From: Synechococcales cyanobacterium bin59.metabat.ball.084
GTDB lineage: Bacteria > Cyanobacteriota > Cyanobacteriia > Cyanobacteriales > Chamaesiphonaceae
Length of the DNA: 22,564 nucleotides
Assembly (NCBI GenBank): GCA_013297675.1
Contig: JAAFHZ010000070.1
Span: forward strand, 1-22,564
Direction: 5' to 3'
The notes under the pieces are model-generated. The model saw nothing but the letters and a program-made list of their open reading frames with translations, searched no databases and was not told where the DNA came from. Made by a program: the position numbers and the translations under genes. Position 1 is the first letter of the stretch, and the number at the start of each line of letters is the position of its first letter. Below, piece by piece: positions 3,172 to 22,564 of this stretch.

Positions 3172-4269
3172 ATGCAAGGCTATTCCGCAATTTTGGCAGT
3201 TATTGTCAGCACCAATATCGCAATTACTTCCCAGATGGGTTCAGCTTTGGCCAGCACGCGCCAGCCAAACCAAACGATCGCAGCTAAGCCCGCTAAACCG
3301 GCGAAGCCTGTAGTATCAGATGCCGATAAACTGATAGCTTCTGCTGCTGACAAAATTGCCAAGGGCAAGTATCAAGAGGCATTAGCTGATTTAGACAAGG
3401 CGATTATCCTCGACCCAGAATCTGCTCGTGCTTACAACAGCCGAGGAATTTTGAAAGATGAAAAACTAGAAGACGCTCCGGGAGCACAGGCTGACCTAAA
3501 TCAGGCGATCGAACTAGCCCCCAAATATGCCGAAGCCTACAACAGCCGCGCCAACCTGAAAAAAAACCGTTTTGATGATGCCCAGGGTGCTTTTTCTGAC
3601 TATACCAAAGCGGTCTTATACTCTCCTAAATATTCTTTGGCCTACTACAACCGGGCGAATCTGCGCAAAAACAGGTTCAAAGACTTTAAAGGAGCCTTGG
3701 CCGACTACACCAAAGCGGTAGAAGCTAATCCGCAGTACGCCTTGGCCTATAACAATCGCGGCATTTTAAAATACGAAAATCTCAATGACATCAAAGGAGC
3801 TTTAGCCGACTATACCCAGGCAATCAGAGTTAATCCTAAATACTCTTTGGCTTACTATAACCGAGCATTACTAAAATCTTCAGAAAAAATCAATAATATT
3901 ACCGGTGCTTTAAATGATTACAACCGGGCGATCGAACTCAAGCCCGATTATGCTCTGGCCTACTTCAACCGAGCCAGCTTAAAAGACGAAAAGCTCAATG
4001 ACCCCAAAGGTGCAGATGCTGATTACACTGTTACCATTAAGCTCACGCCCCAAGATGCCGATTCTTATTACAACCGGGCAGTATTGCGCCAGAATAAACT
4101 CAGAAACAAAACTGGCGCAATTCAAGATTTTCGGTTAGCCGCTAAGCTTTATCGGGAGCAATCCAAAGATCAAGATTTGCAAGAAACCCTAGAACGGCTG
4201 CAAAAACTTGGTGCCACCGAAACAGGTGTAGCCCCACTGATTCCGGTGAAAACTCCCAAAAAGCGCTAA
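3172..4269 (+). CDS. Secreted or periplasmic tetratricopeptide-repeat (TPR) protein
   Basis: 365 aa with an N-terminal hydrophobic signal-like segment. About eight iterations of a 34-aa unit follow (A.AYNNRG.LK...L.D..GALADYT.AI..NP.YALAYYNRA). Confidence 0.9.
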   Translation: MQGYSAILAVIVSTNIAITSQMGSALASTRQPNQTIAAKPAKPAKPVVSDADKLIASAADKIAKGKYQEALADLDKAIILDPESARAYNSRGILKDEKLEDAPGAQADLNQAIELAPKYAEAYNSRANLKKNRFDDAQGAFSDYTKAVLYSPKYSLAYYNRANLRKNRFKDFKGALADYTKAVEANPQYALAYNNRGILKYENLNDIKGALADYTQAIRVNPKYSLAYYNRALLKSSEKINNITGALNDYNRAIELKPDYALAYFNRASLKDEKLNDPKGADADYTVTIKLTPQDADSYYNRAVLRQNKLRNKTGAIQDFRLAAKLYREQSKDQDLQETLERLQKLGATETGVAPLIPVKTPKKR

Positions 4270-4341
4270 AGCGGGAAGCTTTGCTCCGAGCCTTACCAGC
4301 AGGATTACTAGCACAGGGGTTGAATTCGGTGTTCGCCAGCT

Positions 4342-6735
4342 TTACTCCGCACCCAGCAACGCCTGAAAACCCTGTCCGGCAGTCCATTGCACCGCTCCAT
4401 CTCGACCAGTAATGAAAACCTTGGCACCCAATTTTTCTAGGTGCTGAATAGTTTCTGGGTTGGGAGTTACGGTGGCCGCGATCGCTACCTGGGGACGAAT
4501 GGCTTTAATGAACGTATCAGTCAGCACCCCCCCCGACCAGTAAATCGCCTGTACTGGTTGCAGCTTATCGGGCATCGCTAATTCCCGCTGTTGGTCAATT
4601 TGAATATCTCCCCCAATTAACCAGTGCTGACCACCGATTTCTAGATCAAGTAAGGGCGGATCGGCAAACAGTAAATTGGTTTTGCCGCCTAAAAGATCTT
4701 GGGCTTTACCCAAGGGAGACATATTTATTCCGGGAATTTTGAGTGGTTTTTGGGGTGGATGATAAAGCCTGTTAATTGGCAAATTATTATGGAGAGTTTG
4801 CCAACCTTTGGCTGCGGCATCGATCGCTACCCCTCCGGCGACCGATCCATCGCTACCTTCAATGCTATTGACAATGTTTACACTTCCACCTGGAGGCTTA
4901 CTGGTCTGTAAGGTGATTGCTTGATCCAGACTATTTACTGCCTCATTAGTCAAAAATGGCAGCACCGTAAAACGGGCAGTACTACTATCCCCAGTATCAA
5001 TCAAAGCTGTTTGATAATTCTTTTGAATAACTAGAATTCTTTCTTCCCGCGCGGCCAAAGCCGTAATCTTAAACTCTTGACCTTTGACCACCGCTAAAGG
5101 CACGGCAATCAATAGCACAGACAGGGCTAAAACCAACCGCCAGCGCTTTTGCCACCAGGGAAGCTGCCACACCAAGAAAATAGCGGCGTATAAAAATAAT
5201 AATTGCCATAGACGAATGCTGCCCACCGCAATATTAGCACCGGGCAAACTGGCAAACAATTCTACGATCGCCAGCAATAGCTTAGTGGGATACAACAATA
5301 ACCAAGCCACCGCACTGCCCGCTAGGGGAAAAACCCCGGCCACCAAAGCACTCACCATGCCACCAATGCTAATTAAGGTAATAAAAGGAGCCGCAATCAC
5401 ATTAGCGGGCAAAGAATACAAAGGCACTACCTTAAAAGTCCAAAGCTGGATCGGTAAAGTCCAAATCGTCGCCGCCAAAGGCACCGCGATCGCCTCTGCT
5501 AATACTGGCGGCACAAAATCTAATTTCTTTTGAATCGGCGTAGCACTCACCACTAAGCCCATTGTCGCCAAAAAACTAAGCTGAAAACCCACATCCCAAA
5601 TCCACAGCGGCTCAATTACCAACAGCACCACGGCGGCTAACAATAGCGAATTCAAGGGGCGCAACTGCCGTGATAGCAGCATTCCCCCTAAAACCGCTAT
5701 TCCCATTACTGCTGCCCGCAGCACCGAAGGCTGTGGCCCAGCCATGGCCACAAAAGCCACAATCCCCATTAGACCCAAACCAAACTGCCACTTCTTCGCC
5801 AGATATCGCTTGGTAAAACTCATGAGCGCTGCCACAATCAGCGATACCTGAAAACCCGAAGCCGCCAAAGCATGTGCTAAACCCACTCGCACAAAGACAT
5901 CTTTTACGTCAAAAGGTAAATCTACTGCCTCGTTACCCAAAGCCATGGCGCTGACCAACGGCCCGATCGGCACATCCAACCACCGCACCTGCGCCGCCAC
6001 AATTCGCTGTCGAATCTTGGCTAAATCCCAAGTACGAATTTGTTCTTCATCAGTCAAAAAAAGCTGATTCGCCCGCATCCCCGCAAAGCTACCCGATCGA
6101 GCCAAATAATTTTCAAAGTTCAAGCCCCCCGGATTTAACACCGGCATGGGCTTATACAAAGTGCCCGTCACCACCACCTGCACTCCCGGCTTAAGACCCG
6201 TTGCGCTGATCAAAGGAGCCGTCACATACAATCGCCCATCCACTTTCCGAATACTGGCCGGACTTGGATCATCTCCTTGAATTTGACTGAGCTGGTTAAC
6301 TTGTAGCCAAAACTGCGCCCGATCGCTGCGAGTTGCCTGAGGATAGCTATCTACTACCCCCCGCACCGTAGAAAACTGCTTGGTGCCTCGGCCTTCGATC
6401 GAGTTTACAAAAATGCTGATATCTTGGCTGGCCAGATGGGGCAACCGCATTTGACCGTAAAAGCTAGCCAATATGAGGACTAAGGCCCAGCCCATTCGCC
6501 AAGGCCAAGCAAAGGCAAACTTTAATCTTTTTTTGCGGCTGCGATACCAGGCTTCGGCCAGATACCACCCACCCACTAGTAATCCGGCGATCGCCCAACT
6601 CCACCAAGAATAAGAACTCACCGCCAAGCCCACCATGTAAGCCAGACACAAAAGTCCGATCCGAGCAGCGTTATCCATGCAAAATATCCAGGCAAAATTC
6701 AGGGGCAGATGAAGAAGCAAACCACAATTCAGCAC
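4342..6735 (-). CDS. comEC: ComEC/Rec2-family DNA-internalisation channel protein with a degenerate C-terminal metallo-beta-lactamase-like domain
   Basis: 797 aa with an N-terminal OB-like region, a polytopic Competence domain (many TM helices) and a C-terminal MBL-like tail. The true start may be the internal ATG at 6678 (MDNAARIGLL...). Confidence 0.85.
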   Translation of the reverse strand: MLNCGLLLHLPLNFAWIFCMDNAARIGLLCLAYMVGLAVSSYSWWSWAIAGLLVGGWYLAEAWYRSRKKRLKFAFAWPWRMGWALVLILASFYGQMRLPHLASQDISIFVNSIEGRGTKQFSTVRGVVDSYPQATRSDRAQFWLQVNQLSQIQGDDPSPASIRKVDGRLYVTAPLISATGLKPGVQVVVTGTLYKPMPVLNPGGLNFENYLARSGSFAGMRANQLFLTDEEQIRTWDLAKIRQRIVAAQVRWLDVPIGPLVSAMALGNEAVDLPFDVKDVFVRVGLAHALAASGFQVSLIVAALMSFTKRYLAKKWQFGLGLMGIVAFVAMAGPQPSVLRAAVMGIAVLGGMLLSRQLRPLNSLLLAAVVLLVIEPLWIWDVGFQLSFLATMGLVVSATPIQKKLDFVPPVLAEAIAVPLAATIWTLPIQLWTFKVVPLYSLPANVIAAPFITLISIGGMVSALVAGVFPLAGSAVAWLLLYPTKLLLAIVELFASLPGANIAVGSIRLWQLLFLYAAIFLVWQLPWWQKRWRLVLALSVLLIAVPLAVVKGQEFKITALAAREERILVIQKNYQTALIDTGDSSTARFTVLPFLTNEAVNSLDQAITLQTSKPPGGSVNIVNSIEGSDGSVAGGVAIDAAAKGWQTLHNNLPINRLYHPPQKPLKIPGINMSPLGKAQDLLGGKTNLLFADPPLLDLEIGGQHWLIGGDIQIDQQRELAMPDKLQPVQAIYWSGGVLTDTFIKAIRPQVAIAATVTPNPETIQHLEKLGAKVFITGRDGAVQWTAGQGFQALLGAE

Positions 6736-11787: not shown

Positions 11788-12927
11788 ATGTCAGATGTGA
11801 TTAAAAAGTCGGATTTTGTGATTACTCCCTACATGAAGAGTAGTAACTGGCGGGCAACCTATCAAATTTTAAATACGGTCATACCCTATCTATTGTTGTG
11901 GTTTTTGGCAGTAAAAGCTGTACCAGTTTCCCTATGGTTACTGCCACCAATTATGGTTTTAATGACGCTCTTTTCGGTGCGCTGCTTTTCTTTGATGCAT
12001 GACTGCGGACATTATTCGCTTTTTACCTCCAAAAAAATCAATCGGGTGGTGGGCTTTTTCCTGGGGGTAATTAATGCCATTCCTCAATATCCTTGGTCAC
12101 GGGGACATGCTTATCACCACAAAACCAATGGTGATTGGGAGCGCTATCGAGGACCATCGGGCTTAGTTTCAACTGAAGAGTTTGCTAAGCTCAGCACCTC
12201 TGCACAAAAGCACTACGAATTACTGCGACAGCCTTGGATGATTATTCCTGGTGGTTTTTTCTATCTGGCAATTAAGCCCAGAATGCAGTTGATATTGGGC
12301 ATTTATGGTTTAATTCGCCATGCCTTCGCCTGCTGGAAAAACCAATCAGGATTGAGCCTGTCAAAAATTTTCACTTCCTATGAATCTAGAAATTGGTATA
12401 CGACTGCTGAGTTTTGGGATTTGCTCTTAAATAATATCTGTGTGGTTGGTGCTTGGATTACTCTGAGTAACTGGCTGGGTGCTGGGTTCTTTTTAGGTAT
12501 TTACTCAGTTACCCTGACTTTTTCGGCAGCGATCTTTATTTGTGTATTCTTTGTTCAACACAACTTTGAGGGGTCTTACGCTCACAAAACCGAGGGTTGG
12601 GATTATTTATTGGGGGCGATCGAAGGCAGTAGCTATCTAAAGCTACCGGCGATCTTAAATTGGTTTTCGGCAGATATTGGATATCACAATATTCATCACC
12701 TTTCTGAGCGGATTCCTAATTACAATTTAGCAGCTTGCCATCAAGAAAATGCTCATCTTTTGGCTAAGGCTAAGGTTTTACGCCTAGCAGATATAACCGG
12801 TTGCTTTGGTTTCTTGTTGTGGGATGCGGCCTCGAATAGTTTAGTGTCGATCGACTCATTTCGTCGGGATGCTTTGGCCAAGACTGATGCCCAGATACCT
12901 GTTTTGGTTAGTGTTGCCAATCCATAG
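11788..12927 (+). CDS. Membrane fatty-acid desaturase family (di-iron, three His boxes)
   Basis: 379 aa with His boxes HDCGH, HAYHH and HNIHH, plus QHNFEG. Hydrophobic segments flank the boxes. Confidence 0.9.
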   Translation: MSDVIKKSDFVITPYMKSSNWRATYQILNTVIPYLLLWFLAVKAVPVSLWLLPPIMVLMTLFSVRCFSLMHDCGHYSLFTSKKINRVVGFFLGVINAIPQYPWSRGHAYHHKTNGDWERYRGPSGLVSTEEFAKLSTSAQKHYELLRQPWMIIPGGFFYLAIKPRMQLILGIYGLIRHAFACWKNQSGLSLSKIFTSYESRNWYTTAEFWDLLLNNICVVGAWITLSNWLGAGFFLGIYSVTLTFSAAIFICVFFVQHNFEGSYAHKTEGWDYLLGAIEGSSYLKLPAILNWFSADIGYHNIHHLSERIPNYNLAACHQENAHLLAKAKVLRLADITGCFGFLLWDAASNSLVSIDSFRRDALAKTDAQIPVLVSVANP

Positions 12928-12950: not shown

Positions 12951-12990
12951 CCCTGGAATTTCCTGCGGGTGATTCCAGGGAATTTTTGTT
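12951..12990 (+). terminator. Rho-independent terminator after the desaturase gene
   Basis: Stem ccctggaat (12951-12959) pairs with attccaggg (12972-12980), followed by aatttttgtt. Confidence 0.7.
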
Positions 12991-13010: not shown

Positions 13011-13082
13011 CTAATTGGACATAATTGGACTTAATTGGCTATAATCGGCTCATTAATTGGACATGGTGGCTAATTTGGTGAC
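13011..13082. promoter_or_regulatory. Phased 10-bp iterons (TAATTGGAC-like) with an embedded TATAAT, overlapping the Fic gene start
   Basis: cTAATTGGAC (13011-20), aTAATTGGAC (13021-30), tTAATTGGCT (13031-40), aTAATCGGCT (13041-50), TAATTGGAC (13054-62) and TAATTTGGTGAC (13071-82). TATAAT is at 13040-13045, with TTGGAC at 13015-13020. Confidence 0.5.
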
Positions 13083-14121
13083 AGATATAGAGATTCTGAT
13101 CAGTCAAGAAGTTCTGCGGCTGATTGCGGAGATTGATGAATTTAAGGGCAGATGGCGGGCGCTGAATGCGTTGGCACCCGATCGATTAGCGGCGCTGCGC
13201 AAGGTGGCGACGATCGAAAGCATTGGTTCTTCCACGCGCATTGAAGGGGCACGGTTATCCGATCGACAGGTGCAAGCCCTACTCTCAAATTTGGGTAAGC
13301 AAAGCTTTGCTTCTAGAGATGAAGAAGAGGTTGCCGGTTATGCGGAGGTGATGGATTTGGTTTTTGCCAATTGGGAAGCGATTCCTTTTACTGAAAACTA
13401 CATTAAGCAATTGCATCAGATGCTGCTCAAACATAGTTTTCGAGACGAACGACATCGGGGTGAATACAAGAAGTTCTCTAATAGTGTCCAGGCTTTTGAT
13501 AGTGATGGGAATAGTTTAGGGGTGGTGTTTGAAACCACTTCGCCTTTTGATACACCTAGTCGAATGGCCGATATAGTGATCTGGACACAAGAGAATTTAT
13601 TGACAGCCAAGATTCACCCGCTGTTAACTATTAGTGTTTTTATTGTACAGTTCTTGGCGATTCACCCTTTTCAGGATGGTAATGGTCGGTTATCGCGAGT
13701 ACTGACCACATTGCTATTGTTGAAAGCCGGTTATATTTATGTACCCTATTCTTCGCTAGAAAGTATCATTGAAGAAAGCAAAGAAGGATACTATTTAGCT
13801 TTGCGTCAAACTCAGAATACTTTATTTCAAGATCCTAATTGGGAACCATGGCTATTGTTTTTTCTACGAGCTTTACAGCGACAGAAAAACCGTTTACAGG
13901 TGAAGATGGACAATGAAAAAATCATGGCTTCTACTCTGCCTGCACTATCGGTGAGCATTTTAGAATTAGCGAAGGAACATGGACGGGTAACAACTCAGGG
14001 AATTGAGCAGGCTACCGGGGAAAGTCGCAGTACAATTAAGGCGCGACTTAAGCAGTTAACGGACGATCAGCTATTAGTTCGCTATGGTCAAGGTCGATCG
14101 ACTTGGTATGCACTGAGCTAG
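13057..14121 (+). CDS. Fic-family AMPylase, class II (N-terminal inhibitory helix), with a C-terminal winged-HTH
   Basis: The canonical FIC motif HPFQDGNGRLSR begins at H203. The inhibitory motif S-x-x-x-E-G is SSTRIEG (S59-G64). The C-terminal segment ILELAKEHGRVTTQGIEQATGESRSTIKARLKQL looks wHTH-like. The start may be ATG 13063 rather than TTG 13057. Confidence 0.92.
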   Translation: MDMVANLVTDIEILISQEVLRLIAEIDEFKGRWRALNALAPDRLAALRKVATIESIGSSTRIEGARLSDRQVQALLSNLGKQSFASRDEEEVAGYAEVMDLVFANWEAIPFTENYIKQLHQMLLKHSFRDERHRGEYKKFSNSVQAFDSDGNSLGVVFETTSPFDTPSRMADIVIWTQENLLTAKIHPLLTISVFIVQFLAIHPFQDGNGRLSRVLTTLLLLKAGYIYVPYSSLESIIEESKEGYYLALRQTQNTLFQDPNWEPWLLFFLRALQRQKNRLQVKMDNEKIMASTLPALSVSILELAKEHGRVTTQGIEQATGESRSTIKARLKQLTDDQLLVRYGQGRSTWYALS

Positions 14122-14260: not shown

Positions 14261-15484
14261 ATGGCTATTTATATCATCAGACCGAAACAAACTGCTGTTG
14301 CCCGATCGATGGATTTAATTTCCAGAAAGCTGGCCTCGAAAGATCGAGAAGACCAAGTAGCTGAAGTGACTGAATTACAAGCACAAGATCCAATCCAGAA
14401 AGAGATTCAGCATTGGATAGAAGATGAACAACATGGCAGTAACATTCGGGTACTGAAAAGTCCAAAGTTGCCGGGGGTAACGGGAGCAGCCGTTCTGGAT
14501 ATGACAGATGAAGTTGCTGATCGAATGCGGGAAGATTTATCGGGAATTTACGTTTTGAAAGATCAGCCGATCGAATTAATTCAGCCTGTCAAGCTAACTG
14601 CGACCTCGAAGAGAGAAGAAGAGCTGAATGTAGAAGACCTTTGGCATCTGCGGGCGATCGGCTACCAACCAGGCAAAGGTCTGACAGGCGAAGGACAAGG
14701 CATCGGTGTTGCGGTGTTAGATACAGGGGTAGATTCATCACATCCGGCTCTCCGAGGAAAAGTAGCGAGTGCCTATGAGTTTGATGCTCAAGCTTGGAAA
14801 ACTATTCAAAAGCCTAATTCACTGGATACGGAAGGTCATGGAACTCATGTAGCTGGATTGATTGCTGGTCAACGGATTGGTGTTGCTCCTGCAGCGAAGC
14901 TGTTTAGTGGCATTATTACTCCGAAAGGACGTGGAGACCTTTCTACTTTTATTTTGGCTTTGGAGTGGGTGGCAACTCAGCCAGAAATTCAGATTGTCAA
15001 TATCTCTGCTGGTTTTAGGGGATATTTGCCCCAGATGGATGATGTGATTGCTGATTTGCTGGCAATCGGGGTATTACCAGTTTGTGCAACGGGGAATGAT
15101 GGCAGAAATCGTACTTGTAGCCCCGGCAATTATCGGGATGTGATTTCGGTGGGGGCGGCAAATAAGCAAAATCTGGTGGCTAGTTTTAGTAGCGGTGGTA
15201 CTTTGGCGATCGAGAATCATCAGTATACGGTGCCAAATTTGGTGGCACCGGGGGCAAGTGTTTATTCTGCGGTGGTGACTGGGGGCTATGAAGCTTGGGA
15301 TGGTACTTCGATGGCAACACCAATTGTATCTGGGGTGGCGGCTTTGATTTTAGAAAAGTATCCAAATATGACTGTCACTGATCTGCGAGAAGAATTATTA
15401 TTGAGGTGTCAGGATTTGAAACAGCCGGTCGATCGACAGGGTGCCGGATTGATCCAATTGGAGCCAACTCGTGAATCTAAATGA
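14261..15484 (+). CDS. S8 (subtilisin-like) serine peptidase with no signal peptide and an N-terminal prodomain-like region
   Basis: The catalytic triad motifs are VAVLDTGVD (D154), HGTHVAG (H193) and GTSMATP (S350), with the oxyanion Asn in CATGNDG. The N-terminus MAIYIIRPKQTAVARS is not hydrophobic. The stop at 15482-15484 overlaps the next ORF. Confidence 0.92.
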   Translation: MAIYIIRPKQTAVARSMDLISRKLASKDREDQVAEVTELQAQDPIQKEIQHWIEDEQHGSNIRVLKSPKLPGVTGAAVLDMTDEVADRMREDLSGIYVLKDQPIELIQPVKLTATSKREEELNVEDLWHLRAIGYQPGKGLTGEGQGIGVAVLDTGVDSSHPALRGKVASAYEFDAQAWKTIQKPNSLDTEGHGTHVAGLIAGQRIGVAPAAKLFSGIITPKGRGDLSTFILALEWVATQPEIQIVNISAGFRGYLPQMDDVIADLLAIGVLPVCATGNDGRNRTCSPGNYRDVISVGAANKQNLVASFSSGGTLAIENHQYTVPNLVAPGASVYSAVVTGGYEAWDGTSMATPIVSGVAALILEKYPNMTVTDLREELLLRCQDLKQPVDRQGAGLIQLEPTRESK

Positions 15485-18086
15485 AAGCCATCTTCGTAAA
15501 ACTGATCCGATTCTCCTTGATAGGTTGATGCACGCTAAAGCAGGAGAAGTGTTGCGGGTGGCAATGACGCTCAACGCTGAAGCATTGGAAGCTGAGAAAA
15601 CTTTGACTTTGCCCACTCTCGATCCTGGTCAGTTTCCTTCACGGGTAGATTATCGACAAGCTCTGATTCAGCAACAACAAGCTCGATTAGAGACGAATTT
15701 GGGTGCAACAATTCAAGATTTGCAGGATCTTTCTTTGAAAACTTATGGTGGTACAACTAGTCGAGTGATTATTATTGAGGGTACGGCTGAACAAATTATC
15801 AAGTCTTTGGATTTAACGGGGGTTCACCATGCCAGTTTTGATCAATCGATCAGAATTGAACCTGCTTTGCCTTCTCAAGAAATGCTAAAATCCGCAGAGT
15901 ACTTGACGCAAGTTGCGATCAGGATTCTTGAATCACAAAAGGGTGAAAACATTCTGGGACAAGATCTAATTCGCCTAAACTTTAAGATTTTCATGGGGAG
16001 TAACTATAACCAAAAGAATAATAATGTTGTTGATGCTCAATTGATTAGTCATGCTTTTGAAAAGTATGTTGAGAATTACAAAGCTCGTTACTGTCTTTTG
16101 AAAGTATTGGGGATGCGTAAACCAGTAGAATTAGAGTCGGTTTATACAGATGTAAGATTGCTAAATGATATTGATATTCATCAATTTGAATCATTACAGG
16201 AAATGGAGAAGGCTTATCGAAAACAAACAAATATTCAATCTAAGAGTAGTCAAAGAGGCGGAGTAGATATTGCTAACCAACAAAGATTCTTAATGGTATT
16301 AGGTGCTCCTGGGGCTGGTAAATCCACTTTTTTGCGTCGAATAGGATTAGAAGCTTTAAAGGGTAAAAATTCACTCTTCGAGCATTCTTGTATTCCTATA
16401 TTGATAGAACTAAAACAGTTGAATAATATCAGTGTTGATCTAAGTAAGTTGATTGTAGAGGAGTTTGAATCATGTGATTTTCCTGATGCTCAAGAATTTG
16501 TAATGGCAGCGATACATCAGGGTAAACTGCTATTACTCTTAGATGGATTAGATGAAGTACCAACTTCTAGCCTAAGTGAAGTTGTCAATGAAATCATAAA
16601 TTTTGTGCAAAACAATCCAAAAAATAGATATATTTTCTCCTGTCGTACGGCTGCTTATCGCCAAGAGTTTCGTGGTTTTGTAAACGTAAAGATGGCAGAG
16701 TTTGAAGATGATCAAATCCAACAATTTATTAATAACTGGTTTAAGTCTGAAGTTGATCAAAAGGCCAATACTGCAGAACGCTGTTGGAATGATTTGCAAC
16801 AGCCAGAGCAGCAGGGAGCAAAAGAACTAGCTCATACACCATTATTACTAACATTTTTATGTTTGGTTTATGACCGCTCACAGAAATTTCCAATCAATCG
16901 CAGTGTTCTGTATAGCAAAGCCCTACGAATTTTAATGGAAGAATGGGCTGCGGATAAACGAATTTTGCAAGATGCTATATATCAAGGACTCAGTACAGAT
17001 CTAGAGGAAATTTTATTATCTGAAATTGCAGCAACTGGATTTGAAGCAAATCAAATGTTTTTTTCCAAAGGCAAATTGATTGACAGAATAAGGATATTTT
17101 TAGCTAATAATTTGAATGCTCCTAATCAATTGGATGGAGAAGCCATATTAAATGCAATTGTAGTTCAACAAGGTATTTTAGTGGAGCGCGCTGAGGATGC
17201 TTATTCTTTTTCTCACCTTACTTTGCAAGAATACCTAACAGCTCAATATATTAGTGACAATTCAGCCATTAAACATCTGGTGAGAGTCCATTTAACTGAT
17301 CCACGTTGGCAAGAGGTGTTTCTTATGGTGGCTGGACTCATGCGAGGTGGAGTAGATGAATTACTATTGTTAATGGAAGATCAGGCACAAAAATTTATTA
17401 GCCCTTCATGTAAACATGATGAAGATGTATTAGAATCCAGCTCTAATTTACAAAATCTTTTACAGTGGGCAGATTCAGTAGTAATGACTTCAGAAGAAGG
17501 AAGTAAACTTGCAACTAAACGATCAGAGGCCATTTTTCTAGCACTAAATCTTATCTACGATTATGATCGTAGCATTGACCGTGCTCGTAATCGTGCTCTT
17601 AATCTTGCTATTGACCTTACCAGTGAACGCGACCTCGCTATTGATCGTGCTCGTGATCGGGCACTCAACTTTGCAATCAACCTTACGACGATAAATAATA
17701 ATCTTGTTAACCCAGATGAGAAGGGTATTTACATGGCTCGTAATCGTGCTATTGCAAATGTCCAAAATTATCAAAAAATAAAAATTTTTCAACCCGAAAT
17801 CTACACGAATTTGATTTCAAGTATAGAGAGTTTGCAACCTGATGTTGTAGCGGGCGATCAAACTTTTGAGTTTATTCTTCGTATTAATTCTCTTTGGTTT
17901 GAGGCACTTCATTTGGAACCAGATACATTAAGATTTTCGCAGGATGAGAGAGAAAGGCTAGAAAAATATCTGTATTCGAATGAATTAATTGTAAAATGTA
18001 AAAAATCAGCGGTGCTTGTTTCAAAACAGACTTGGTCAATGATTGAGGATCGTATGTTCAAGGTTTTAACACCACTGAAAACATGA
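15471..18086 (+). CDS. NACHT-domain STAND NTPase (bacterial NLR-like) with a prodomain-like N-terminus and a helical-repeat C-terminus
   Basis: Walker A is LGAPGAGKST (G278-T286) and Walker B is LLLLDGLDE (D358). It also has CRTAAY, HTPLLLTFLCLVY and the WH-like FSHLTLQEYLTAQYI. The GTG start at 15471 overlaps the S8 stop by 14 nt; the alternative ATG is at 15528. Confidence 0.92.
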   Translation: MNLNESHLRKTDPILLDRLMHAKAGEVLRVAMTLNAEALEAEKTLTLPTLDPGQFPSRVDYRQALIQQQQARLETNLGATIQDLQDLSLKTYGGTTSRVIIIEGTAEQIIKSLDLTGVHHASFDQSIRIEPALPSQEMLKSAEYLTQVAIRILESQKGENILGQDLIRLNFKIFMGSNYNQKNNNVVDAQLISHAFEKYVENYKARYCLLKVLGMRKPVELESVYTDVRLLNDIDIHQFESLQEMEKAYRKQTNIQSKSSQRGGVDIANQQRFLMVLGAPGAGKSTFLRRIGLEALKGKNSLFEHSCIPILIELKQLNNISVDLSKLIVEEFESCDFPDAQEFVMAAIHQGKLLLLLDGLDEVPTSSLSEVVNEIINFVQNNPKNRYIFSCRTAAYRQEFRGFVNVKMAEFEDDQIQQFINNWFKSEVDQKANTAERCWNDLQQPEQQGAKELAHTPLLLTFLCLVYDRSQKFPINRSVLYSKALRILMEEWAADKRILQDAIYQGLSTDLEEILLSEIAATGFEANQMFFSKGKLIDRIRIFLANNLNAPNQLDGEAILNAIVVQQGILVERAEDAYSFSHLTLQEYLTAQYISDNSAIKHLVRVHLTDPRWQEVFLMVAGLMRGGVDELLLLMEDQAQKFISPSCKHDEDVLESSSNLQNLLQWADSVVMTSEEGSKLATKRSEAIFLALNLIYDYDRSIDRARNRALNLAIDLTSERDLAIDRARDRALNFAINLTTINNNLVNPDEKGIYMARNRAIANVQNYQKIKIFQPEIYTNLISSIESLQPDVVAGDQTFEFILRINSLWFEALHLEPDTLRFSQDERERLEKYLYSNELIVKCKKSAVLVSKQTWSMIEDRMFKVLTPLKT
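17574..17759 (+). repeat. In-frame degenerate repeats encoding IDRAR(N/D)RALN(L/F)AI(D/N)L in the NACHT C-terminal region
   Basis: attgaccgtgctcgtaatcgtgctcttaatcttgctattgacctt (17574-17618) and attgatcgtgctcgtgatcgggcactcaactttgcaatcaacctt (17640-17684) are 66 nt apart. A third partial copy ARNRAIAN is at 17736-17759. Confidence 0.8.
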
Positions 18087-18285: not shown

Positions 18286-18516
18286 TCATGAATCTAAAAA
18301 CTCTTCTTGGTCTAGAGCCATAAAAGCCAGCAGCTCCATATCTTGGGAATAATCATCAACTGCGGTGGTCGCGGCAATCCCCATTTGTTTTCGTCTTTGT
18401 TCTCTGGTCAGTGCTTGGCGGTTGATTTGGACTAGTTGCAGAGCTGTTTCTGCAATTTTAAGCTGATCGATGGGGTTTAGCTGTGGCAAGCTTGCTAGAA
18501 TTTCAGAGGTTCCCAT
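18286..18516 (-). CDS. Small hypothetical protein (76 aa), possibly an orphan antitoxin-like or addiction-module-like component
   Basis: The ORF is MGTSEILASLPQLNPIDQLKIAETALQLV...QEEFLDS, helical with an acidic C-terminus. No partner ORF of at least 60 aa lies adjacent. The family guess is weak. Confidence 0.4.
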   Translation of the reverse strand: MGTSEILASLPQLNPIDQLKIAETALQLVQINRQALTREQRRKQMGIAATTAVDDYSQDMELLAFMALDQEEFLDS

Positions 18517-18692: not shown

Positions 18693-19844
18693 ATGAAGTT
18701 TCTTTGTCAGCAAGCCGATCTTAGCTCCAGTCTTTCGTTGGTGAGCCGAGCAGTCTCGGGTAAGCCCAGCCTGCCAATTTTGACCAACATCAAGCTGGTG
18801 GCCACTGCTGGGCGGGTGCAGTTGACCGGGTTTGACCTGAGTTTGGGCATTCAGACTAGCTTTGGGGCAGAGGTGAGCGAAGCAGGAGAGATTGCCCTGC
18901 CCGCGAAGTTGTTGAATGATATTGTTTCTCGGCTGCCCAGCGGCGAGATTACGATCGAACAAAATGATTCTCAGAATGGTGATGGCATTGTTGTCACCGT
19001 AAAATCTCAGACTGGTACTTATCAGGTGCGGGGCATGGATGCCACGGAGTTCCCGGAGTTGCCCGAACCAGAAGACGGCGAGATTCAACATTTGCCGATC
19101 ACGGCTTTGATTGATGGTTTACGGGGGGCGTTGATTGCTTGTAGCCAAGATGAAACCAAGCCGATTTTAACCGGGGTGAATTTTAAGCTAGAGGCCGAGA
19201 AGCTGGAGTTTGCGGCTACTGATGGCCACCGGTTAGGGGTGGTGGAGACTTTCTTAGAGGCGGAGCAGGGGGCGGAGAGCACTTTGGAGCTGACGGTGCC
19301 AGCGCGGGCTTTGCGGGAGCTGGAGAAGATGTTGGGGGGTAAGCAGGCCATTGAAAAAATTAGTTTTAGTTTGGGTGAGGGTCAGGCGGTGTTTGCTTGG
19401 GAGACTGCCCATGGTCAGCAGCAGTTGATTACTCGGACGATCGAGGGCAATTATCCAGATTATCGGGCGTTGATTCCGAGTAGTTTTGGCAAGCAGGTGA
19501 CGATCGATCGAAAGCAGTTGGTTTCGGCGCTGGAGCGGATTGCAGTTTTGGCCGATCAGCATAATAATTTGGTGAAGTTCACGATTAGCAATGAAAATCA
19601 GTCATTAGATCTTTCGGTAGAGGCTCAAGATATCGGTAGTGGTCGAGAGTCTTTGACTGCTCAGGTTTCGGGTGATGATATTGAGATTGCTTTTAATGTG
19701 CGCTATTTGCTGGATGGTTTGAAAAATATTAATGCTCAGGATGTAGCGATTAATCTCAATGGAGTTTTGGAGCAGGTGGTATTTTCACCAGTGGGCGGTG
19801 CGAAGACTATTTATTTGGTGATGCCGGTGCAGATTCGGGGTTAG
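18693..19844 (+). CDS. dnaN: DNA polymerase III beta sliding clamp
   Basis: 383 aa starting MKFLCQQADLSSSLSLVSRAVSGKPSLPILTNIKLVA, with a three-domain length and the characteristic ATDGHRL and C-terminal YLVMPVQIR. Confidence 0.97.
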   Translation: MKFLCQQADLSSSLSLVSRAVSGKPSLPILTNIKLVATAGRVQLTGFDLSLGIQTSFGAEVSEAGEIALPAKLLNDIVSRLPSGEITIEQNDSQNGDGIVVTVKSQTGTYQVRGMDATEFPELPEPEDGEIQHLPITALIDGLRGALIACSQDETKPILTGVNFKLEAEKLEFAATDGHRLGVVETFLEAEQGAESTLELTVPARALRELEKMLGGKQAIEKISFSLGEGQAVFAWETAHGQQQLITRTIEGNYPDYRALIPSSFGKQVTIDRKQLVSALERIAVLADQHNNLVKFTISNENQSLDLSVEAQDIGSGRESLTAQVSGDDIEIAFNVRYLLDGLKNINAQDVAINLNGVLEQVVFSPVGGAKTIYLVMPVQIRG

Positions 19845-19877: not shown

Positions 19878-20318
19878 ATGATGTCCTTTGAAGAAATGCA
19901 GTCTATCTTGCAAGAAATTCTGCTATCGCAACGACAGTTTCAGGCTGAAATAGTAGAGACAAAAGCAACTGCCGAACGTGCTAACCAAGCGGCTGAACGT
20001 GCCAACCAAGCGGCTGAACGTGCTAACCAAGCGGCTGAACGTGCTACTCAAGTTGCTGAACGTGCTACCCAAGTTGCTGAATCTAATGGTCGTGCTATTC
20101 AAGCAATGCTTGAACAAGCCGCTACTGATCGACTCGAAGCGCAAGAACGCGCCAAACATCATGAGGAACGAATGCAGCGGCTTGAAAATCTATCTGCGGG
20201 TCTAATTAATCTCACTGTCTCGCTTGATGAAGACCGCCCTACCATCCTTCGCCTCTTGAACTCTAATAACAACAAGCTTGACTTACTGCTCGATCGATTA
20301 CCTCCTCAACAGCAGTAA
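19878..20318 (+). CDS. Small coiled-coil protein with heptad AERA(N/T)Q(A/V) repeats
   Basis: 146-aa ORF starting 33 bp after dnaN, preceded by the RBS-like agagagg. It is predicted to be strongly helical and I recognise no family. Confidence 0.6.
   Translation: MMSFEEMQSILQEILLSQRQFQAEIVETKATAERANQAAERANQAAERANQAAERATQVAERATQVAESNGRAIQAMLEQAATDRLEAQERAKHHEERMQRLENLSAGLINLTVSLDEDRPTILRLLNSNNNKLDLLLDRLPPQQQ
19971..20081 (+). repeat. Five and a quarter tandem copies of a 21-bp unit (gctgaacgtgctaaccaagcg)
   Basis: Units start at 19971, 19992, 20013, 20034 and 20055, with a partial unit at 20076-20081. Units 1-3 encode AERANQA and units 4-5 encode AERATQV. Confidence 0.95.
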
Positions 20319-20395: not shown

Positions 20396-21288
20396 GTTCC
20401 AATCCTCGACTGCCCTGAAGGTTGATCGCTGCGTGCTGCTGCTCGACGAAAACAACGAACCACTCCATGTTCCAATCCTCGATCGCCCCGAAGGGCAATC
20501 GCTACTCTTTTTCTTGAGCAATTCCATGTTTTGATCGGTTCCAATCCTCGATCGCCCCGAAGGGCAATCGCTACCTTCGACCTACGCTAAATTTTACCTC
20601 CATGGTTTGTTCCAATCCTCGATCGCCCCGAAGGGCAATCGCTACGGCAGTTTGTCCGCAATGCATTCTCTAAAACCAATAGTTCCAATCCTCGATCGCC
20701 CCGAAGGGCAATCGCTACTAAGGATTTACTAAGAGATTTCTTTCCACCACCAATGGTTCCAATCCTCGATCGCCCCGAAGGGCAATCGCTACCCGGCGTT
20801 GGACTTTACACAGGTACTTCAGACGTTCCAATCCTCGATCGCCCCGAAGGGCAATCGCTACACTGCTGACTGGGTAGATGAGCTGAGCTGGGATGTAGTT
20901 CCAATCCTCGATCGCCCCGAAGGGCAATCGCTACTTCAGCACCCACCTGCGATGCTGACCTGTCCAGTTCCAATCCTCGATCGCCCCGAAGGGCAATCGC
21001 TACCTGATAACCCAAGAATAACTACTTTAGGGTGGATGATTGTTCCAATCCTCGATCGCCCCGAAGGGCAATCGCTACCACAAAGGGCGATATCTGCACC
21101 CAACGATAAAGTTCCAATCCTCGATCGCCCCGAAGGGCAATCGCTACAGACAGGCAAGCTGCTGAGGACGAGGCTAGAGTTCCAATCCTCGATCGCCCCG
21201 AAGGGCAATCGCTACTTTGGGCTATGTGCCAGTTTTTGAGCGCAGGGAGAAGTTCCAATCCTCGATCGCCCCGAAGGGCAATCGCTAC
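20396..21288 (-). CRISPR. CRISPR array with 13 repeats of 37 nt (12 identical, 1 degenerate distal) and 12 spacers of 31-38 nt
   Basis: The plus-strand repeat is gttccaatcctcgatcgccccgaagggcaatcgctac. Repeats start at 20396 (degenerate, 7/37 mismatches), 20469, 20538, 20609, 20682, 20756, 20825, 20898, 20967, 21042, 21111, 21179 and 21252. I infer minus-strand orientation from the degenerate repeat lying far from cas1-cas2, the minus-strand cas genes, and the minus-strand repeat GTAGCGATTGCCCTTCGGGGCGATCGAGGATTGGAAC ending in ATTGGAAC. Confidence 0.97.
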
Positions 21289-21458: not shown

Positions 21459-21752
21459 TCATAAAATCAACGGCTCATTAAAATCTACATACTTATCAAT
21501 GCCATAAGCCTCCACCGATCGATCACGGCCACCCATCAACTTATAGAATCGCAGACTATCCAACTGCAAATCAACAATCTTCAACAGCTTCGCCCTAAAC
21601 ATCTCAAACTGCATCTCATCAATCTCACACTCAAACACCGACAACTGCACCCGCTGACCATAATCTTTACAGACGATCGCCAGCTTGCGCAACCGTCGCG
21701 CCCCCGCCCGCGACTCCGTTTCACCCACATCATAAGTCACCAAAATATTCAT
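21459..21752 (-). CDS. cas2: CRISPR-associated endoribonuclease Cas2
   Basis: MNILVTYDVGETESRAGARRLRKLAIVCKDYGQRVQLSVFECEI...SLRFYKL is a canonical Cas2. The true start is ATG 21752, preceded by GGAG; the ORF-track start at 21797 is an upstream extension. Confidence 0.93.
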   Translation of the reverse strand: MNILVTYDVGETESRAGARRLRKLAIVCKDYGQRVQLSVFECEIDEMQFEMFRAKLLKIVDLQLDSLRFYKLMGGRDRSVEAYGIDKYVDFNEPLIL

Positions 21753-21823
21753 ACGTTTATTTCTCCAATAATTTAACGTAGGTTGAGCGGCTAGCACTGA
21801 GCGGAGCCGAAGTGAGTCGAAAC

Positions 21824-22564
21824 CTAACCTCGCAAAATAAACGGTGGATACTGGGGAATATCACCCCGCAAATGCCTCGCCAACAAACGAGCCTGCACAT
21901 GACACAGCAACCCCACCGGCACCTTAGACTCCAAAATAGGATGCGTCACCTCCTCCTTTTTACGATTTTGATACGCCGTCAAAAAATCTTGCCGCGCCTG
22001 ATCCTTCAAATACACCCCACCCCCCGGACGATCGACAAAATCACTAGGCTTGATCTGCCCCCGATTCACCAAACTTAACACCAATCGATCGGCCACTACC
22101 GATCGCAGCTCCTCCATCAAATCCAACGCCAGCGAAGGCCGCCCCGGACGCAGCACATGGGAAAAACCCATTTGCGGATCTAACCCCACCCCCTCGCAAG
22201 CTGCCACACACTCATTAGCCAGCAGCGTATAGGCAAAAGATAGCAAAGCATTAATACCATCCTTCGGTGGTCGCTTCGATCGCTCCTTAAACTCAAAACC
22301 ATCGCGATTCATCCGAATCATCTCGCTAAAAGCACCAAAATAAGCCTTAGCTGCATGGCCTTCAATGCCCCGCAACTGATCAATATCTACCGATTTTTCA
22401 ATGCTTTCAATGGCATCAGCATGAGCCTGCGCCGCCGATCGCAGCTTGGTTTCGTCCTTCCCCTCCTTGGCTTCTCGCGCAGCTCTCATCAGCACATTGC
22501 GCGTATTTTGCAGCTTGCCAGCCACCACATACCGGGCAATATTGAGCGTCGCCACTGGATTATT
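21824..22564 (-). CDS. cas1: CRISPR-associated integrase Cas1 (5' end off the window), resembling type I-C (DVULG-type) Cas1
   Basis: The frame stays open to the window edge. Motifs are RSKRPPKDGINALLSFAYTLLAN, RPGRPSLALDLMEELR and the C-terminal LLARHLRGDIPQYPPF. The subtype resemblance is from memory of I-C Cas1 sequences. Confidence 0.93.
   Translation of the reverse strand, partial: NNPVATLNIARYVVAGKLQNTRNVLMRAAREAKEGKDETKLRSAAQAHADAIESIEKSVDIDQLRGIEGHAAKAYFGAFSEMIRMNRDGFEFKERSKRPPKDGINALLSFAYTLLANECVAACEGVGLDPQMGFSHVLRPGRPSLALDLMEELRSVVADRLVLSLVNRGQIKPSDFVDRPGGGVYLKDQARQDFLTAYQNRKKEEVTHPILESKVPVGLLCHVQARLLARHLRGDIPQYPPFILRG

Follow-up and report, generated by a model that had tools for sequence, protein, structure and literature searches.

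Why should a cytoplasmic subtilisin-family protease be encoded in overlap with an NLR-like NTPase, and what would keep such a protease silent until it is needed? The question is raised by two genes on contig JAAFHZ010000070.1 of the Synechococcales cyanobacterium bin59.metabat.ball.084 (assembly GCA_013297675.1), within a stretch of 22,564 nucleotides (positions 1 to 22,564) that we refer to as the window; coordinates of its features are collected in Table 1. The first gene encodes a protease of peptidase family S8 and the second a NACHT protein, and a first-pass annotation had put the pair forward as a candidate protease-effector immune system. We find that the S8 gene and its partner form a conserved pair, and that the first 135 residues of the NACHT protein (hereafter the N-domain) are predicted to fold like the prodomain of a subtilase. 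In the reading that we favor, with a probability of roughly 45%, this prodomain-like module docks, and probably inhibits, an S8 zymogen on an NLR-like sensor, and oligomerisation of the sensor frees proteolysis.

The 407-aa product of the first gene matches the Pfam model Peptidase_S8 (PF00082) over residues 145-388 with an E-value of 3.9e-50 and 171.2 bits, against a cut-off of 21.8. The triad D154/H193/S350 named in the first-pass annotation is in place and is invariant in alignments of 17 and 26 family members, in which the oxyanion Asn (N290) is also invariant or nearly so. Judged by the family model, the Asp-His-Ser order and the oxyanion Asn, the protein is assigned to peptidase family S8. 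An AlphaFold2 (AF2) model, built on an alignment of 26 homologues and with a predicted template modelling score of 0.90, places a further domain (residues 2-106) in front of the catalytic domain. Its elements run β1, α1, β2, β3, α2, β4 and a tail strand, which is the topology of subtilisin propeptides; α1 is modelled as two helices (26-41 and 44-56), the predicted local distance difference test score (pLDDT) is 75-95, and in the window protein the domain closes with the tail motif DQPIELIQP (aa 101-109). The best matches of the model in the PDB are unautoprocessed pro-subtilisin E, pro-Tk-subtilisin and ProN-Tk-SP, with E-values of about 1e-23. These matches span 400-460 aligned columns and therefore include the prodomain, which the Pfam sequence model did not detect. 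On the structural model the S8 protein is a zymogen that carries its own N-terminal prodomain. The earlier expectation that the protease would be kept under tight control by a coupled STAND switch stands only in part, since it missed the primary control, which is this prodomain.

Absence of a signal peptide, likewise reported at first pass, is borne out by the N-terminus MAIYIIRPK, which is free of hydrophobic stretches and forms the first prodomain strand in the model. The family keeps M-x-I-Y-I-I-R-P-K at the protein start, and since the protein opens directly with strand 1, a signal peptide has no room. An intracellular subtilase had been called unusual; intracellular subtilisin precursors are present among the structural matches, thus a cytoplasmic subtilase is not exceptional in itself.

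The second gene begins inside the first. A GGAG sequence ends 7 nt before its GTG, and alignment supports this start, in that homologues open at the matching position; the annotated 14-nt overlap with the end of the S8 gene is real, and it recurs identically in three related contigs (L087, L089 and L092). The 871-aa product scores 57.6 bits against the Pfam NACHT model (PF05729; cut-off 26.7) at residues 273-426. It carries the Walker A motif GAPGAGKS with K284 and the Walker B motif LLLLLDGLDE with D358, followed by D361/E362, both residues being as given in the earlier description. Domain score and Walker motifs place the protein, at the level of its sequence, in the NACHT clade of STAND NTPases. 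NACHT C-terminal helical domain 2 (NCH2, PF22727) follows at residues 807-863 with 43.9 bits against a cut-off of 27. The overall architecture is that of an N-terminal module and a hypervariable C-terminal region, and Pfam gives NCH2 and no recognised repeat sensor; once the N-domain is removed, Pfam shows no recognisable effector domain in the protein. Residues 641-800 are only 10-40% identical to those of 18 aligned full-length homologues, as against 58-74% in residues 441-640, and in the window protein they consist of degenerate RARNRALNLAIDL-type repeats. This stretch is a candidate for the ligand-sensing part. In homologues (P0012, P0014, P0026 and P0039) the hypervariable region is made of lineage-specific, low-complexity, heptad-like repeats such as ANAYAYGYA, RDLARALPGDLARA and NVKAIANVEAYA.

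The NACHT protein falls in a very large cyanobacterial NACHT-NCH2 family, whose members of ~800-910 aa have the first ~140-190 residues and whose members of ~700 aa lack them. The linker that joins the N-domain to NACHT is variable over its first ~60 aa, and its remainder is common to the ~700-aa paralogues without the N-domain. Most paralogues of the family (P0014 and ~100 others, ~700 aa) are without the prodomain-like module, and P0014 has in place of it a short Gly/Trp-rich hydrophobic start, 'GWKGGSGLFGWIG'. The P0014 start suggests that N-terminal modules are swapped within the family, and its Gly/Trp-rich segment could be a membrane-active or amyloid-type output.

What, then, is the N-domain? 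Its AF2 model, made from an alignment of 28 sequences (pLDDT 88.6), shows two short helices followed by β1 (27-34), α1 (58-86), β2, β3, α2 and β4. A Foldseek search of this model against the PDB returned subtilase prodomains as 9 of the 11 best matches. Among them are two chains of ProN-Tk-SP (probability 1.00 and 0.97), a chain listed under 8c4z, the prodomains of PAM protease, PCSK9 (two entries) and CspB, the Aspergillus Alp1 propeptide, and the Tk-subtilisin propeptide with a template modelling score of 0.75 normalised to the target; the prodomains of cucumisin, pro-subtilisin E and PvSUB1 stand lower in the list. The N-domain is therefore best described as a separate domain with a predicted subtilase-prodomain-like (I9-like) β-α-β-β-α-β fold.

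The end of the domain tells the same story as its fold. S8 prodomains of the family close with the consensus x-D-[QR]-P-[IL]-E-L-I-[QR]-P (n=26) and stand-alone N-domains with L-D-[RQ]-[PE]-[ILV]-x-L-[IV]-x-P (n=133). The N-domain of the window NACHT protein ends in F-D-Q-S-I-R-I-E-P, so that a D-Q-x-[IL]-x-[IL] motif is common to it and to the S8 prodomain tail. Profile-profile alignment of the S8 prodomain with the N-domain (hhalign) brings the β3-α2-β4-tail regions into register with E=1.6e-3; by BLASTP the N-termini of the S8 and NACHT proteins showed nothing significant. Two points make the prodomain assignment more persuasive: an unbiased search brought back the very kind of domain that is known to bind S8 catalytic domains, and the tail of the N-domain has a motif in common with that of the S8 prodomain. 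A Pepco/Trypco-type pro-toxin was considered as an identity for the N-domain and rejected on the α/β prodomain-like fold and the lack of a Pfam match.

Since the same predicted fold begins both partners, the N-domain might bind the prodomain of the S8 protein, in the manner of a Death-fold or an effector-associated domain (EAD), rather than its catalytic domain. We regard this as improbable: subtilase prodomains are generally known to bind catalytic domains and not each other, the common tail motif suggests a shared cleft-binding mode, and the sequence similarity of the two domains is marginal. A homotypic contact would fit the 'EAD principle' of one small domain on both effector and NTPase, as set out in PMC8195603. 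Both proteins do start with a prodomain-like fold, with marginal sequence relatedness between the two copies, and the N-domain has no Pfam match that would place it among the described EADs.

Linkage of the two genes was followed from both sides, as the first-pass annotation had proposed. From the NACHT side, an S8 gene lies directly upstream in 6 of 7 homologues that have the same N-terminus, and in the exception (L001) a secreted retropepsin-like gene occupies its position. From the S8 side, an open reading frame (ORF) with an N-domain lies directly downstream in 12 of 12 family-level loci among the matches listed; a profile scan of genome contigs yielded at least 9 family-level S8 loci. A hidden Markov model of the N-domain finds the domain in each of the 26 family loci, whereas 151 loci with generic S8 genes, of which 71 come from genomes and 80 from viral contigs, give no match. 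The match follows a family S8 gene or an S8 remnant in 24 of the 26 family loci; of the other two, L003 has upstream DNA too short to tell and L001 is without an S8 gene. At the S8/partner junction of 18 loci, the genes overlap by 4-29 nt in 12, are separated by 6-16 nt in 5, and by 475 nt in one. The observations support a conserved, translationally coupled pair, with the N-domain as the conserved partner of the S8 protease. Chance origin of the pair is excluded because of the domain E-values and of recurrence in more than 20 independent loci, and a functional link between the S8 and NACHT genes is strongly supported. In the search for phage carriage, a scan of IMG/VR returned generic S8 catalytic domains alone, at identities of at most 37%.

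The identity of the partner depends on the phylum. In cyanobacterial loci, including that of the unicellular Gloeothece PCC 7424, the ORF downstream of the S8 gene encodes a NACHT protein, and here the claim of a coupled S8 and NACHT pair holds. It does not hold in other phyla: in a Chloroflexi metagenome-assembled genome (MAG), an Acidobacteriales MAG, Sagittula, an alphaproteobacterial MAG and Dyadobacter, the S8 gene is followed by a stand-alone N-domain protein of 124-140 aa. These loci of Chloroflexi, Acidobacteria, Alphaproteobacteria and Bacteroidota have no STAND gene nearby, and the neighbors of the stand-alone pair include Lon, FeoB, FKBP, Ldh and PurL. Since outside cyanobacteria the S8 protease pairs with a stand-alone N-domain and no STAND protein, the ancestral unit is S8 plus a small protein, not S8 plus NACHT. 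In the Dyadobacter locus (L094) a second S8 gene, of 375 aa, lies at 3718-4845, immediately 5' of the pair.

When 1.84 billion cluster representatives were searched exhaustively with a profile, the N-domain family came to 428 representatives (E up to 1e-3), 324 of them at E up to 1e-10, with the domain always at the extreme N-terminus. Of 189 N-domain proteins examined, 132 are stand-alone (<175 aa), 39 have 700 aa or more and 18 are intermediate. Fusions join the domain to NACHT and NCH2, to NACHT and HEAT repeats, to TIR, to TIR and EAD7, and to several unassigned C-termini; a TIR fusion and a NACHT-HEAT fusion, both of which were checked, lie directly downstream of a family S8 gene. N-terminal placement, fusions and S8 linkage together mark the N-domain as a portable N-terminal module that couples one S8 clade to oligomerising, immune-type modules. 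Two of the TIR proteins have features of their own: P0269 (442 aa) carries N-domain, TIR and a C-terminal EAD7 adaptor, and the gene of P0314 (296 aa, N-domain and TIR; 5001-5891 of L095/L096) is directly followed by a PNP_UDP_1 phosphorylase-family gene.

Subtilisin propeptides fold on two surface helices of the mature enzyme and place their C-terminal tail in the substrate cleft. After autoprocessing they inhibit tightly, and they are removed in trans by an autocatalytic cascade. By analogy, the first gene would supply a cytoplasmic pro-subtilase whose catalytic domain is held by its own prodomain, and the second an NLR-like NACHT NTPase with another prodomain-like fold in its first 135 residues. 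The N-domain would bind the S8 catalytic domain in propeptide style, its sheet lying against two surface helices and its tail reaching into the substrate cleft. It would thereby both anchor the protease at the N-terminal end of the sensor and hold it inactive. A trigger sensed through the hypervariable residues 641-800 would bring about NTP-dependent oligomerisation of the NACHT protein. Oligomerisation would gather the tethered proteases, so that the prodomains are degraded in trans by an autocatalytic cascade as in subtilisin maturation, and the freed protease would cut cellular, possibly viral, proteins, so that an infected cell would stop growing or die. Domain content, linkage of the genes, the predicted fold, the common motif and the variability are what the data show; what we infer are physical binding with inhibition, the sequence of the steps, the direction of control, the immune role and the substrates. 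The TIR and NACHT-HEAT fusions fit this mechanism because these modules, too, signal by assembly.

The main rival to sensor-controlled docking reverses the hierarchy. In it the N-domain is a docking-and-cleavage tag, and the activated S8 protease cuts at its end, as at the junction of its own prodomain, to release or license the C-terminal NACHT or TIR part, which executes the response. In its favor, the N-domain has a tail motif in common with the processing region of the S8 protein and always lies at the extreme N-terminus with a variable linker behind it, and TIR, a typical effector, would as a fusion partner make a protease-activated latent effector, in parallel with the protease-activated MBL, Pepco and EACC1 modules (bioRxiv 10.1101/2025.11.14.688446). 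Reversal would, however, leave the S8 protease without an evident sensor and would release a NACHT part that has no recognisable effector domain, and the stand-alone N-domain proteins carry no cargo to be released. It would also run against the usual order of bacterial NLRs, in which, according to Kibby et al., the chain starts with an effector or adaptor and ends with the sensor. Taken together these points make the reversed order unlikely.

Several observations weigh against docking and inhibition of the S8 zymogen on an immune sensor. The prodomain-like assignment depends on a predicted structure, and Foldseek E-values for the N-domain are weak (0.025-0.2), therefore 'prodomain-like' is a fold-level assignment from prediction. 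Neither a Pfam match (12 members, E up to 10; no I9) nor a PDB sequence match (profile search) was found for the N-domain, and the hhalign probability relating it to the S8 prodomain is a marginal 16%. Why an S8 protein that already has a prodomain should need another is not obvious. The N-domain occurs mostly as a stand-alone protein among housekeeping genes, and the ancestral pair may be unrelated to immunity. Neighborhoods are mixed, with some relatives beside toxin-antitoxin or ternary conflict genes and others beside housekeeping genes, and neither protein matches a PADLOC or NCBIfam antiphage model at family level. Finally, the S8 gene is lost or damaged beside an intact NACHT or N-domain gene in several loci: it is missing from L001, a fragment in L004-L006, frameshifted in L015 (810-2008) and interrupted in L097 (721-1923) by an in-frame stop, which falls at the Trp of the YEAWDGTSMA motif. 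The S8 gene of L095 (4114-5004) may be 5'-truncated by an adjacent insertion sequence element. Such defects beside intact N-domain genes could reflect counter-selection of a toxic protease or errors of assembly.

The two genes of the pair differ in how they evolve. The closest homologues of the S8 protein are 95-96% identical to it and the closest homologue of the NACHT protein 57%; in clusters at 90% identity the S8 protein has 13 members and the NACHT protein is a singleton. NACHT alleles that lie beside ~95%-identical S8 genes are ~55% identical overall and 17-28% identical in residues 641-800, and with the exception of one closely related pair, alleles beside near-identical S8 genes differ strongly among themselves as well. 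Compared at the nucleotide level with three related contigs, the window is most alike in the S8 gene (93-95% identity), less so in the N-domain (77-80%) and less again over the remainder of the NACHT gene (62-66%), and identity is lost in the flanks of the pair. Pairwise identities of the S8 protein correlate better with those of the N-domain (rho 0.76) than with those of the NACHT core (rho 0.42), values that are descriptive since the pairs are non-independent. GC content is 0.45-0.50 in the S8 gene (~0.46) and flanks and 0.35-0.38 in the NACHT gene (15500-18000), which would fit a separate origin of the sensor gene or a different evolutionary regime. Together the results give the picture of a conserved effector module and a fast-diversifying or recombining sensor that move as a unit, as is typical of immune or allorecognition loci. 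A hypervariable NACHT stretch beside a near-invariant S8 gene supports, in sequence terms, an immune-receptor-like pattern.

Near-identical S8 genes are found in unlike contexts, with Fic and dnaN in the window, PemK and conflict genes in L087, and conflict genes in L089. The conflict genes of L087 (3903-6910) form a Trypco2/trypsin-iSTAND/MoxR-AAA/vWA ternary conflict system just downstream of the pair, accompanied by PemK-like toxin fragments, and those of L089 (4969-7467) are iSTAND/MoxR/vWA genes in the same position.

The changing surroundings bear on a further explanation, in which the protease has a dedicated substrate, of the gasdermin type or another, whose gene lies elsewhere or was missed. 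S8 proteases partner gasdermins in fungi (PMC8851545), NACHT-fused proteases do so in bacteria, and the S8 protein fits the generic 'subtilase' model of PADLOC. From locus to locus nothing but the two genes is kept while their surroundings vary, and those unassigned ORFs of the window that were scanned have no PADLOC match; we consider a dedicated substrate highly improbable. A gasdermin-type system with an adjacent gasdermin gene was rejected because the loci have no conserved third gene, in keeping with the initial remark that no gasdermin-like or other obvious substrate gene is present.

Could the pair serve a purpose other than antiviral defence? An S8 protease and a prodomain-like protein may constitute a protease/inhibitor pair, either toxin-antitoxin-like or for regulated proteolysis, that cyanobacteria have wired to a NACHT protein for stress cell death, development or allorecognition-like discrimination between strains. 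The majority form is stand-alone and lies among housekeeping genes. Polymorphic NACHT alleles beside a conserved partner also mark fungal het loci, where cell death is under the control of HET-Q2, an S8 protease, and of S8/NACHT/WD40 proteins (PMC8851545), and the antiphage pair IetAS was first reported as a protease-toxin/ATPase-antitoxin pair for plasmid stability (PMC13069673). Set against this, TIR, EAD7 and NACHT-HEAT are the kind of fusion partner that one expects in conflict systems, the phyletic distribution of the family is patchy with 50-60% identity across phyla, and genomic contexts are variable, some of them rich in defence genes. On balance a non-antiviral role appears unlikely to us as well.

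How does the pair relate to systems that are already known? With I9-type propeptides and inhibitors (MEROPS I9: the propeptides of subtilisin and Tk-subtilisin, POIA1, yeast PBI2, SPI-1) the N-domain shares the predicted β-α-β-β-α-β fold, its encoding together with a cognate S8 protease, and a C-terminal tail that resembles the processing region of the protease. Stand-alone forms exist, as in fungal POIA1 and plant SPI-1 (SPI-1 cited in PMC8851545, ref. 30). Unlike I9 domains it lacks a Pfam or PDB sequence match, and it has two extra N-terminal helices and a long first helix. It is, moreover, bacterial and cytoplasmic, comes from a separate, translationally coupled gene and is fused to NACHT or TIR.

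The NACHT protein resembles bNACHT and Avs proteins in its central NACHT with intact Walker motifs, fast-diversifying C-terminus and putative N-terminal output module, and in the expansion of paralogues in cyanobacteria. In contrast to those proteins, it has as output not a fused enzyme but a domain predicted to dock an S8 protease that is the product of another gene. The peptidases on bacterial NACHT proteins named by Kibby et al. are caspase, trypsin, transglutaminase-like and SMT4 peptidases, and S8 is not among them. PADLOC gave the NACHT protein a weak match to mad8 (1.2e-5) and no family-level match to an Avs or bNACHT model, and NCBIfam scored it at 57 bits against the EruA cut-off of 1000. 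An analogy may also be drawn with recruitment by CARD domains, as in Apaf-1/caspase-9 and the CARD-NLR of bacterial type II gasdermin systems, where an NLR-like NTPase uses an N-terminal adaptor to bring a separate zymogen protease into induced proximity. The adaptor proposed here differs from a Death-fold in being prodomain-like, and would contact a catalytic domain instead of its own kind; the protease is an S8 enzyme instead of a caspase or trypsin, and a gasdermin gene is absent.

IetAS is a validated antiphage and toxin-antitoxin pair in which the S8 protease IetS is toxic and the ATPase IetA restrains it (PMC13069673). Our pair is likewise a two-gene module of an ATPase and a subtilase, yet its ATPase is a NACHT protein, and a prodomain-like adaptor is not known in IetA. 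PADLOC gave the S8 gene, besides the generic 'subtilase' match, local matches to IetS, and identity with IetS was rejected: the matches are local (PADLOC E 2.8e-7; NCBIfam 21.8 bits against a cut-off of 900) and no IetA match accompanies them. Membership of either protein in the NCBIfam mycosin or EruA families was likewise dismissed on scores far under the cut-offs.

Fungal HET-Q2-type S8 proteins and S8/NACHT/WD40 NLRs share with the window pair a cytoplasmic S8 domain without a signal peptide, the link to NACHT and polymorphic loci, and the fungal S8 proteins are tied to cell-death control (PMC8851545). In fungi, however, S8 is fused to the NLR, HET-Q2 is without an I9 domain and its substrate is an adjacent gasdermin (PMC8851545); in the window the genes are split, prodomain-like domains are predicted on both proteins and a conserved substrate gene is lacking. 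Protease-activated effectors of conflict systems (Pepco, EACC1, MBL and α/β-hydrolase) are a further point of comparison, as small proteins encoded beside a serine protease that have a charged, proline-rich C-terminal tail past a conserved hydrophobic residue. In Pepco-type modules the sensor carries the protease as a fusion and toxicity resides in the small protein, and Pepco forms β-barrel oligomers, whereas the N-domain has a prodomain-like fold and no Pfam match to those families.

By model matches, gene context and predicted fold, the pair is thus not placed in the IetAS, gasdermin, Pepco/Trypco or bNACHT/Avs/EruA families, and PADLOC, proposed at first pass, gave it no family-level antiphage match. 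In the literature searched, which included Kaur 2020/2021, Kibby 2022 and a 2026 STAND survey, we met with no account of prodomain-like NACHT or TIR proteins as partners of an S8 protease. The first-pass annotation likewise knew of no experimentally characterised split S8 and NACHT system. Overall, our data suggest an NLR-like protease-effector system that belongs to a well-populated class and uses a previously undescribed adaptor principle.

A broader version of this reading is that a subtilase prodomain was duplicated, split off as a gene and reused as a portable 'protease socket' on NACHT, NACHT-HEAT and TIR proteins, in which the cognate S8 zymogen stays inactive until oligomerisation. We hold this version to be tentative and somewhat unlikely. 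If it were true, prokaryotic innate immunity would include an adaptor of a new class, heterotypic unlike CARD and Death-fold adaptors and at once tether, inhibitor and fuse, and the stand-alone form would amount to a toxin-antitoxin-like pair of protease and inhibitor that is widespread in bacteria.

These results matter in several respects. The N-domain is a protein family without existing annotation, with at least 428 cluster representatives, and is tied to one clade of cytoplasmic subtilases across at least 5 phyla. Bacterial NLR-like proteins are known with fused enzymes or Death-fold adaptors, and recruitment and silencing of separate proteases are understood in few systems. A prodomain mimic that acts as an adaptor would turn the interaction of propeptide and subtilisin, with its tight inhibition and autocatalytic release, into an immune switch. 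Moreover, near-identical S8 genes beside divergent NACHT alleles offer a natural experiment for mapping recognition by the sensor.

Table 1. Features of the window, with positions counted from its first nucleotide.
Feature	Position	Strand	Basis and remarks
S8 (subtilisin-family) protease zymogen gene, cytoplasmic	14261-15484	+	ORF, 407 aa, ATG start; Pfam; AF2 model
S8 N-terminal prodomain, aa 1-106	14261-14578	+	AF2 model, alignment to pro-subtilisins, tail motif consensus
S8 catalytic domain, aa 145-388	14693-15424	+	Pfam Peptidase_S8
S8 catalytic residues	D154 14720-14722; H193 14837-14839; S350 15308-15310	+	
Coupling junction	15460-15484	+	GGAG 15460-15463; GTG 15471; S8 TGA 15482-15484; 14-nt overlap
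NACHT (STAND/NLR-like) NTPase gene	15471-18086	+	ORF, 871 aa, GTG start
N-domain, aa 1-135	15471-15875	+	AF2, Foldseek, linked homologues, hidden Markov model
Linker between N-domain and NACHT, aa 136-272	15876-16286	+	Regional identities, comparison with P0014
NACHT NTPase domain, aa 273-426	16287-16748	+	Pfam; Walker A K284 16320-16322; Walker B D358 16542-16544
Hypervariable region, aa 641-800	17391-17870	+	Low identity among homologues and alleles
NCH2, aa 807-863	17889-18059	+	Pfam PF22727
Desaturase gene	11788-12927		Context, upstream of Fic gene
Fic-domain gene	13057-14121	+	Pfam Fic; PADLOC SoFic match; ends 139 nt 5' of S8 gene
dnaN	18693-19844		Context, downstream of NACHT gene
CRISPR array	~20396-21288	.	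13 copies of a 37-nt repeat; then cas2, cas1
cas2	21459-21797	-	
cas1	21824-22555	-	Cut by window end

The surroundings of the pair are largely as first described, with desaturase, Fic, dnaN and CRISPR-Cas genes all present and the CRISPR array beginning 2.3 kb from the NACHT stop. The terminator reported after the desaturase gene is less secure. A terminator scan of the window found none there under its criteria, and none between the Fic and S8 genes. A hairpin is nevertheless visible 3' of the desaturase gene at ~12951-12990, with a 9-bp stem (CCCTGGAAT / ATTCCAGGG), a 12-nt loop and the T-run AATTTTTGTT behind it, which escaped the scan because its loop is too long; on hairpin and T-run, a terminator at this site is plausible but weak. 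Immediately 5' of the Fic gene, at 13016-13045, a sigma-70-like promoter comes near the consensus, with 11 of 12 positions, and the promoter and terminator scan gave no enrichment over shuffles. The Fic protein matches the PADLOC SoFic defence model with E=4e-49 over 331 of 361 profile positions and has a DIP2311-like helix-turn-helix at its C-terminus. Its gene is not kept beside the S8-NACHT pair in relatives.

Three smaller features lie downstream of the pair. A 76-aa minus-strand ORF at 18286-18516 (MGTSEILASLPQLNPIDQLKIAETALQLV...) sits inside a 600-nt AT-rich gap between the NACHT gene and dnaN and might be an orphan antitoxin-like gene. Directly past dnaN, a 146-aa ORF at 19878-20318 (+) contains six tandem 21-nt repeats (7-aa, AERANQA-like) at 19950-20102; it has no solid family match and weak GARP and JetC coiled-coil-like matches. 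The repeat unit of the CRISPR array is GTTCCAATCCTCGATCGCCCCGAAGGGCAATCGCTAC, its spacers measure ~32-38 nt, and the first copy of the repeat (around 20396) is degenerate.

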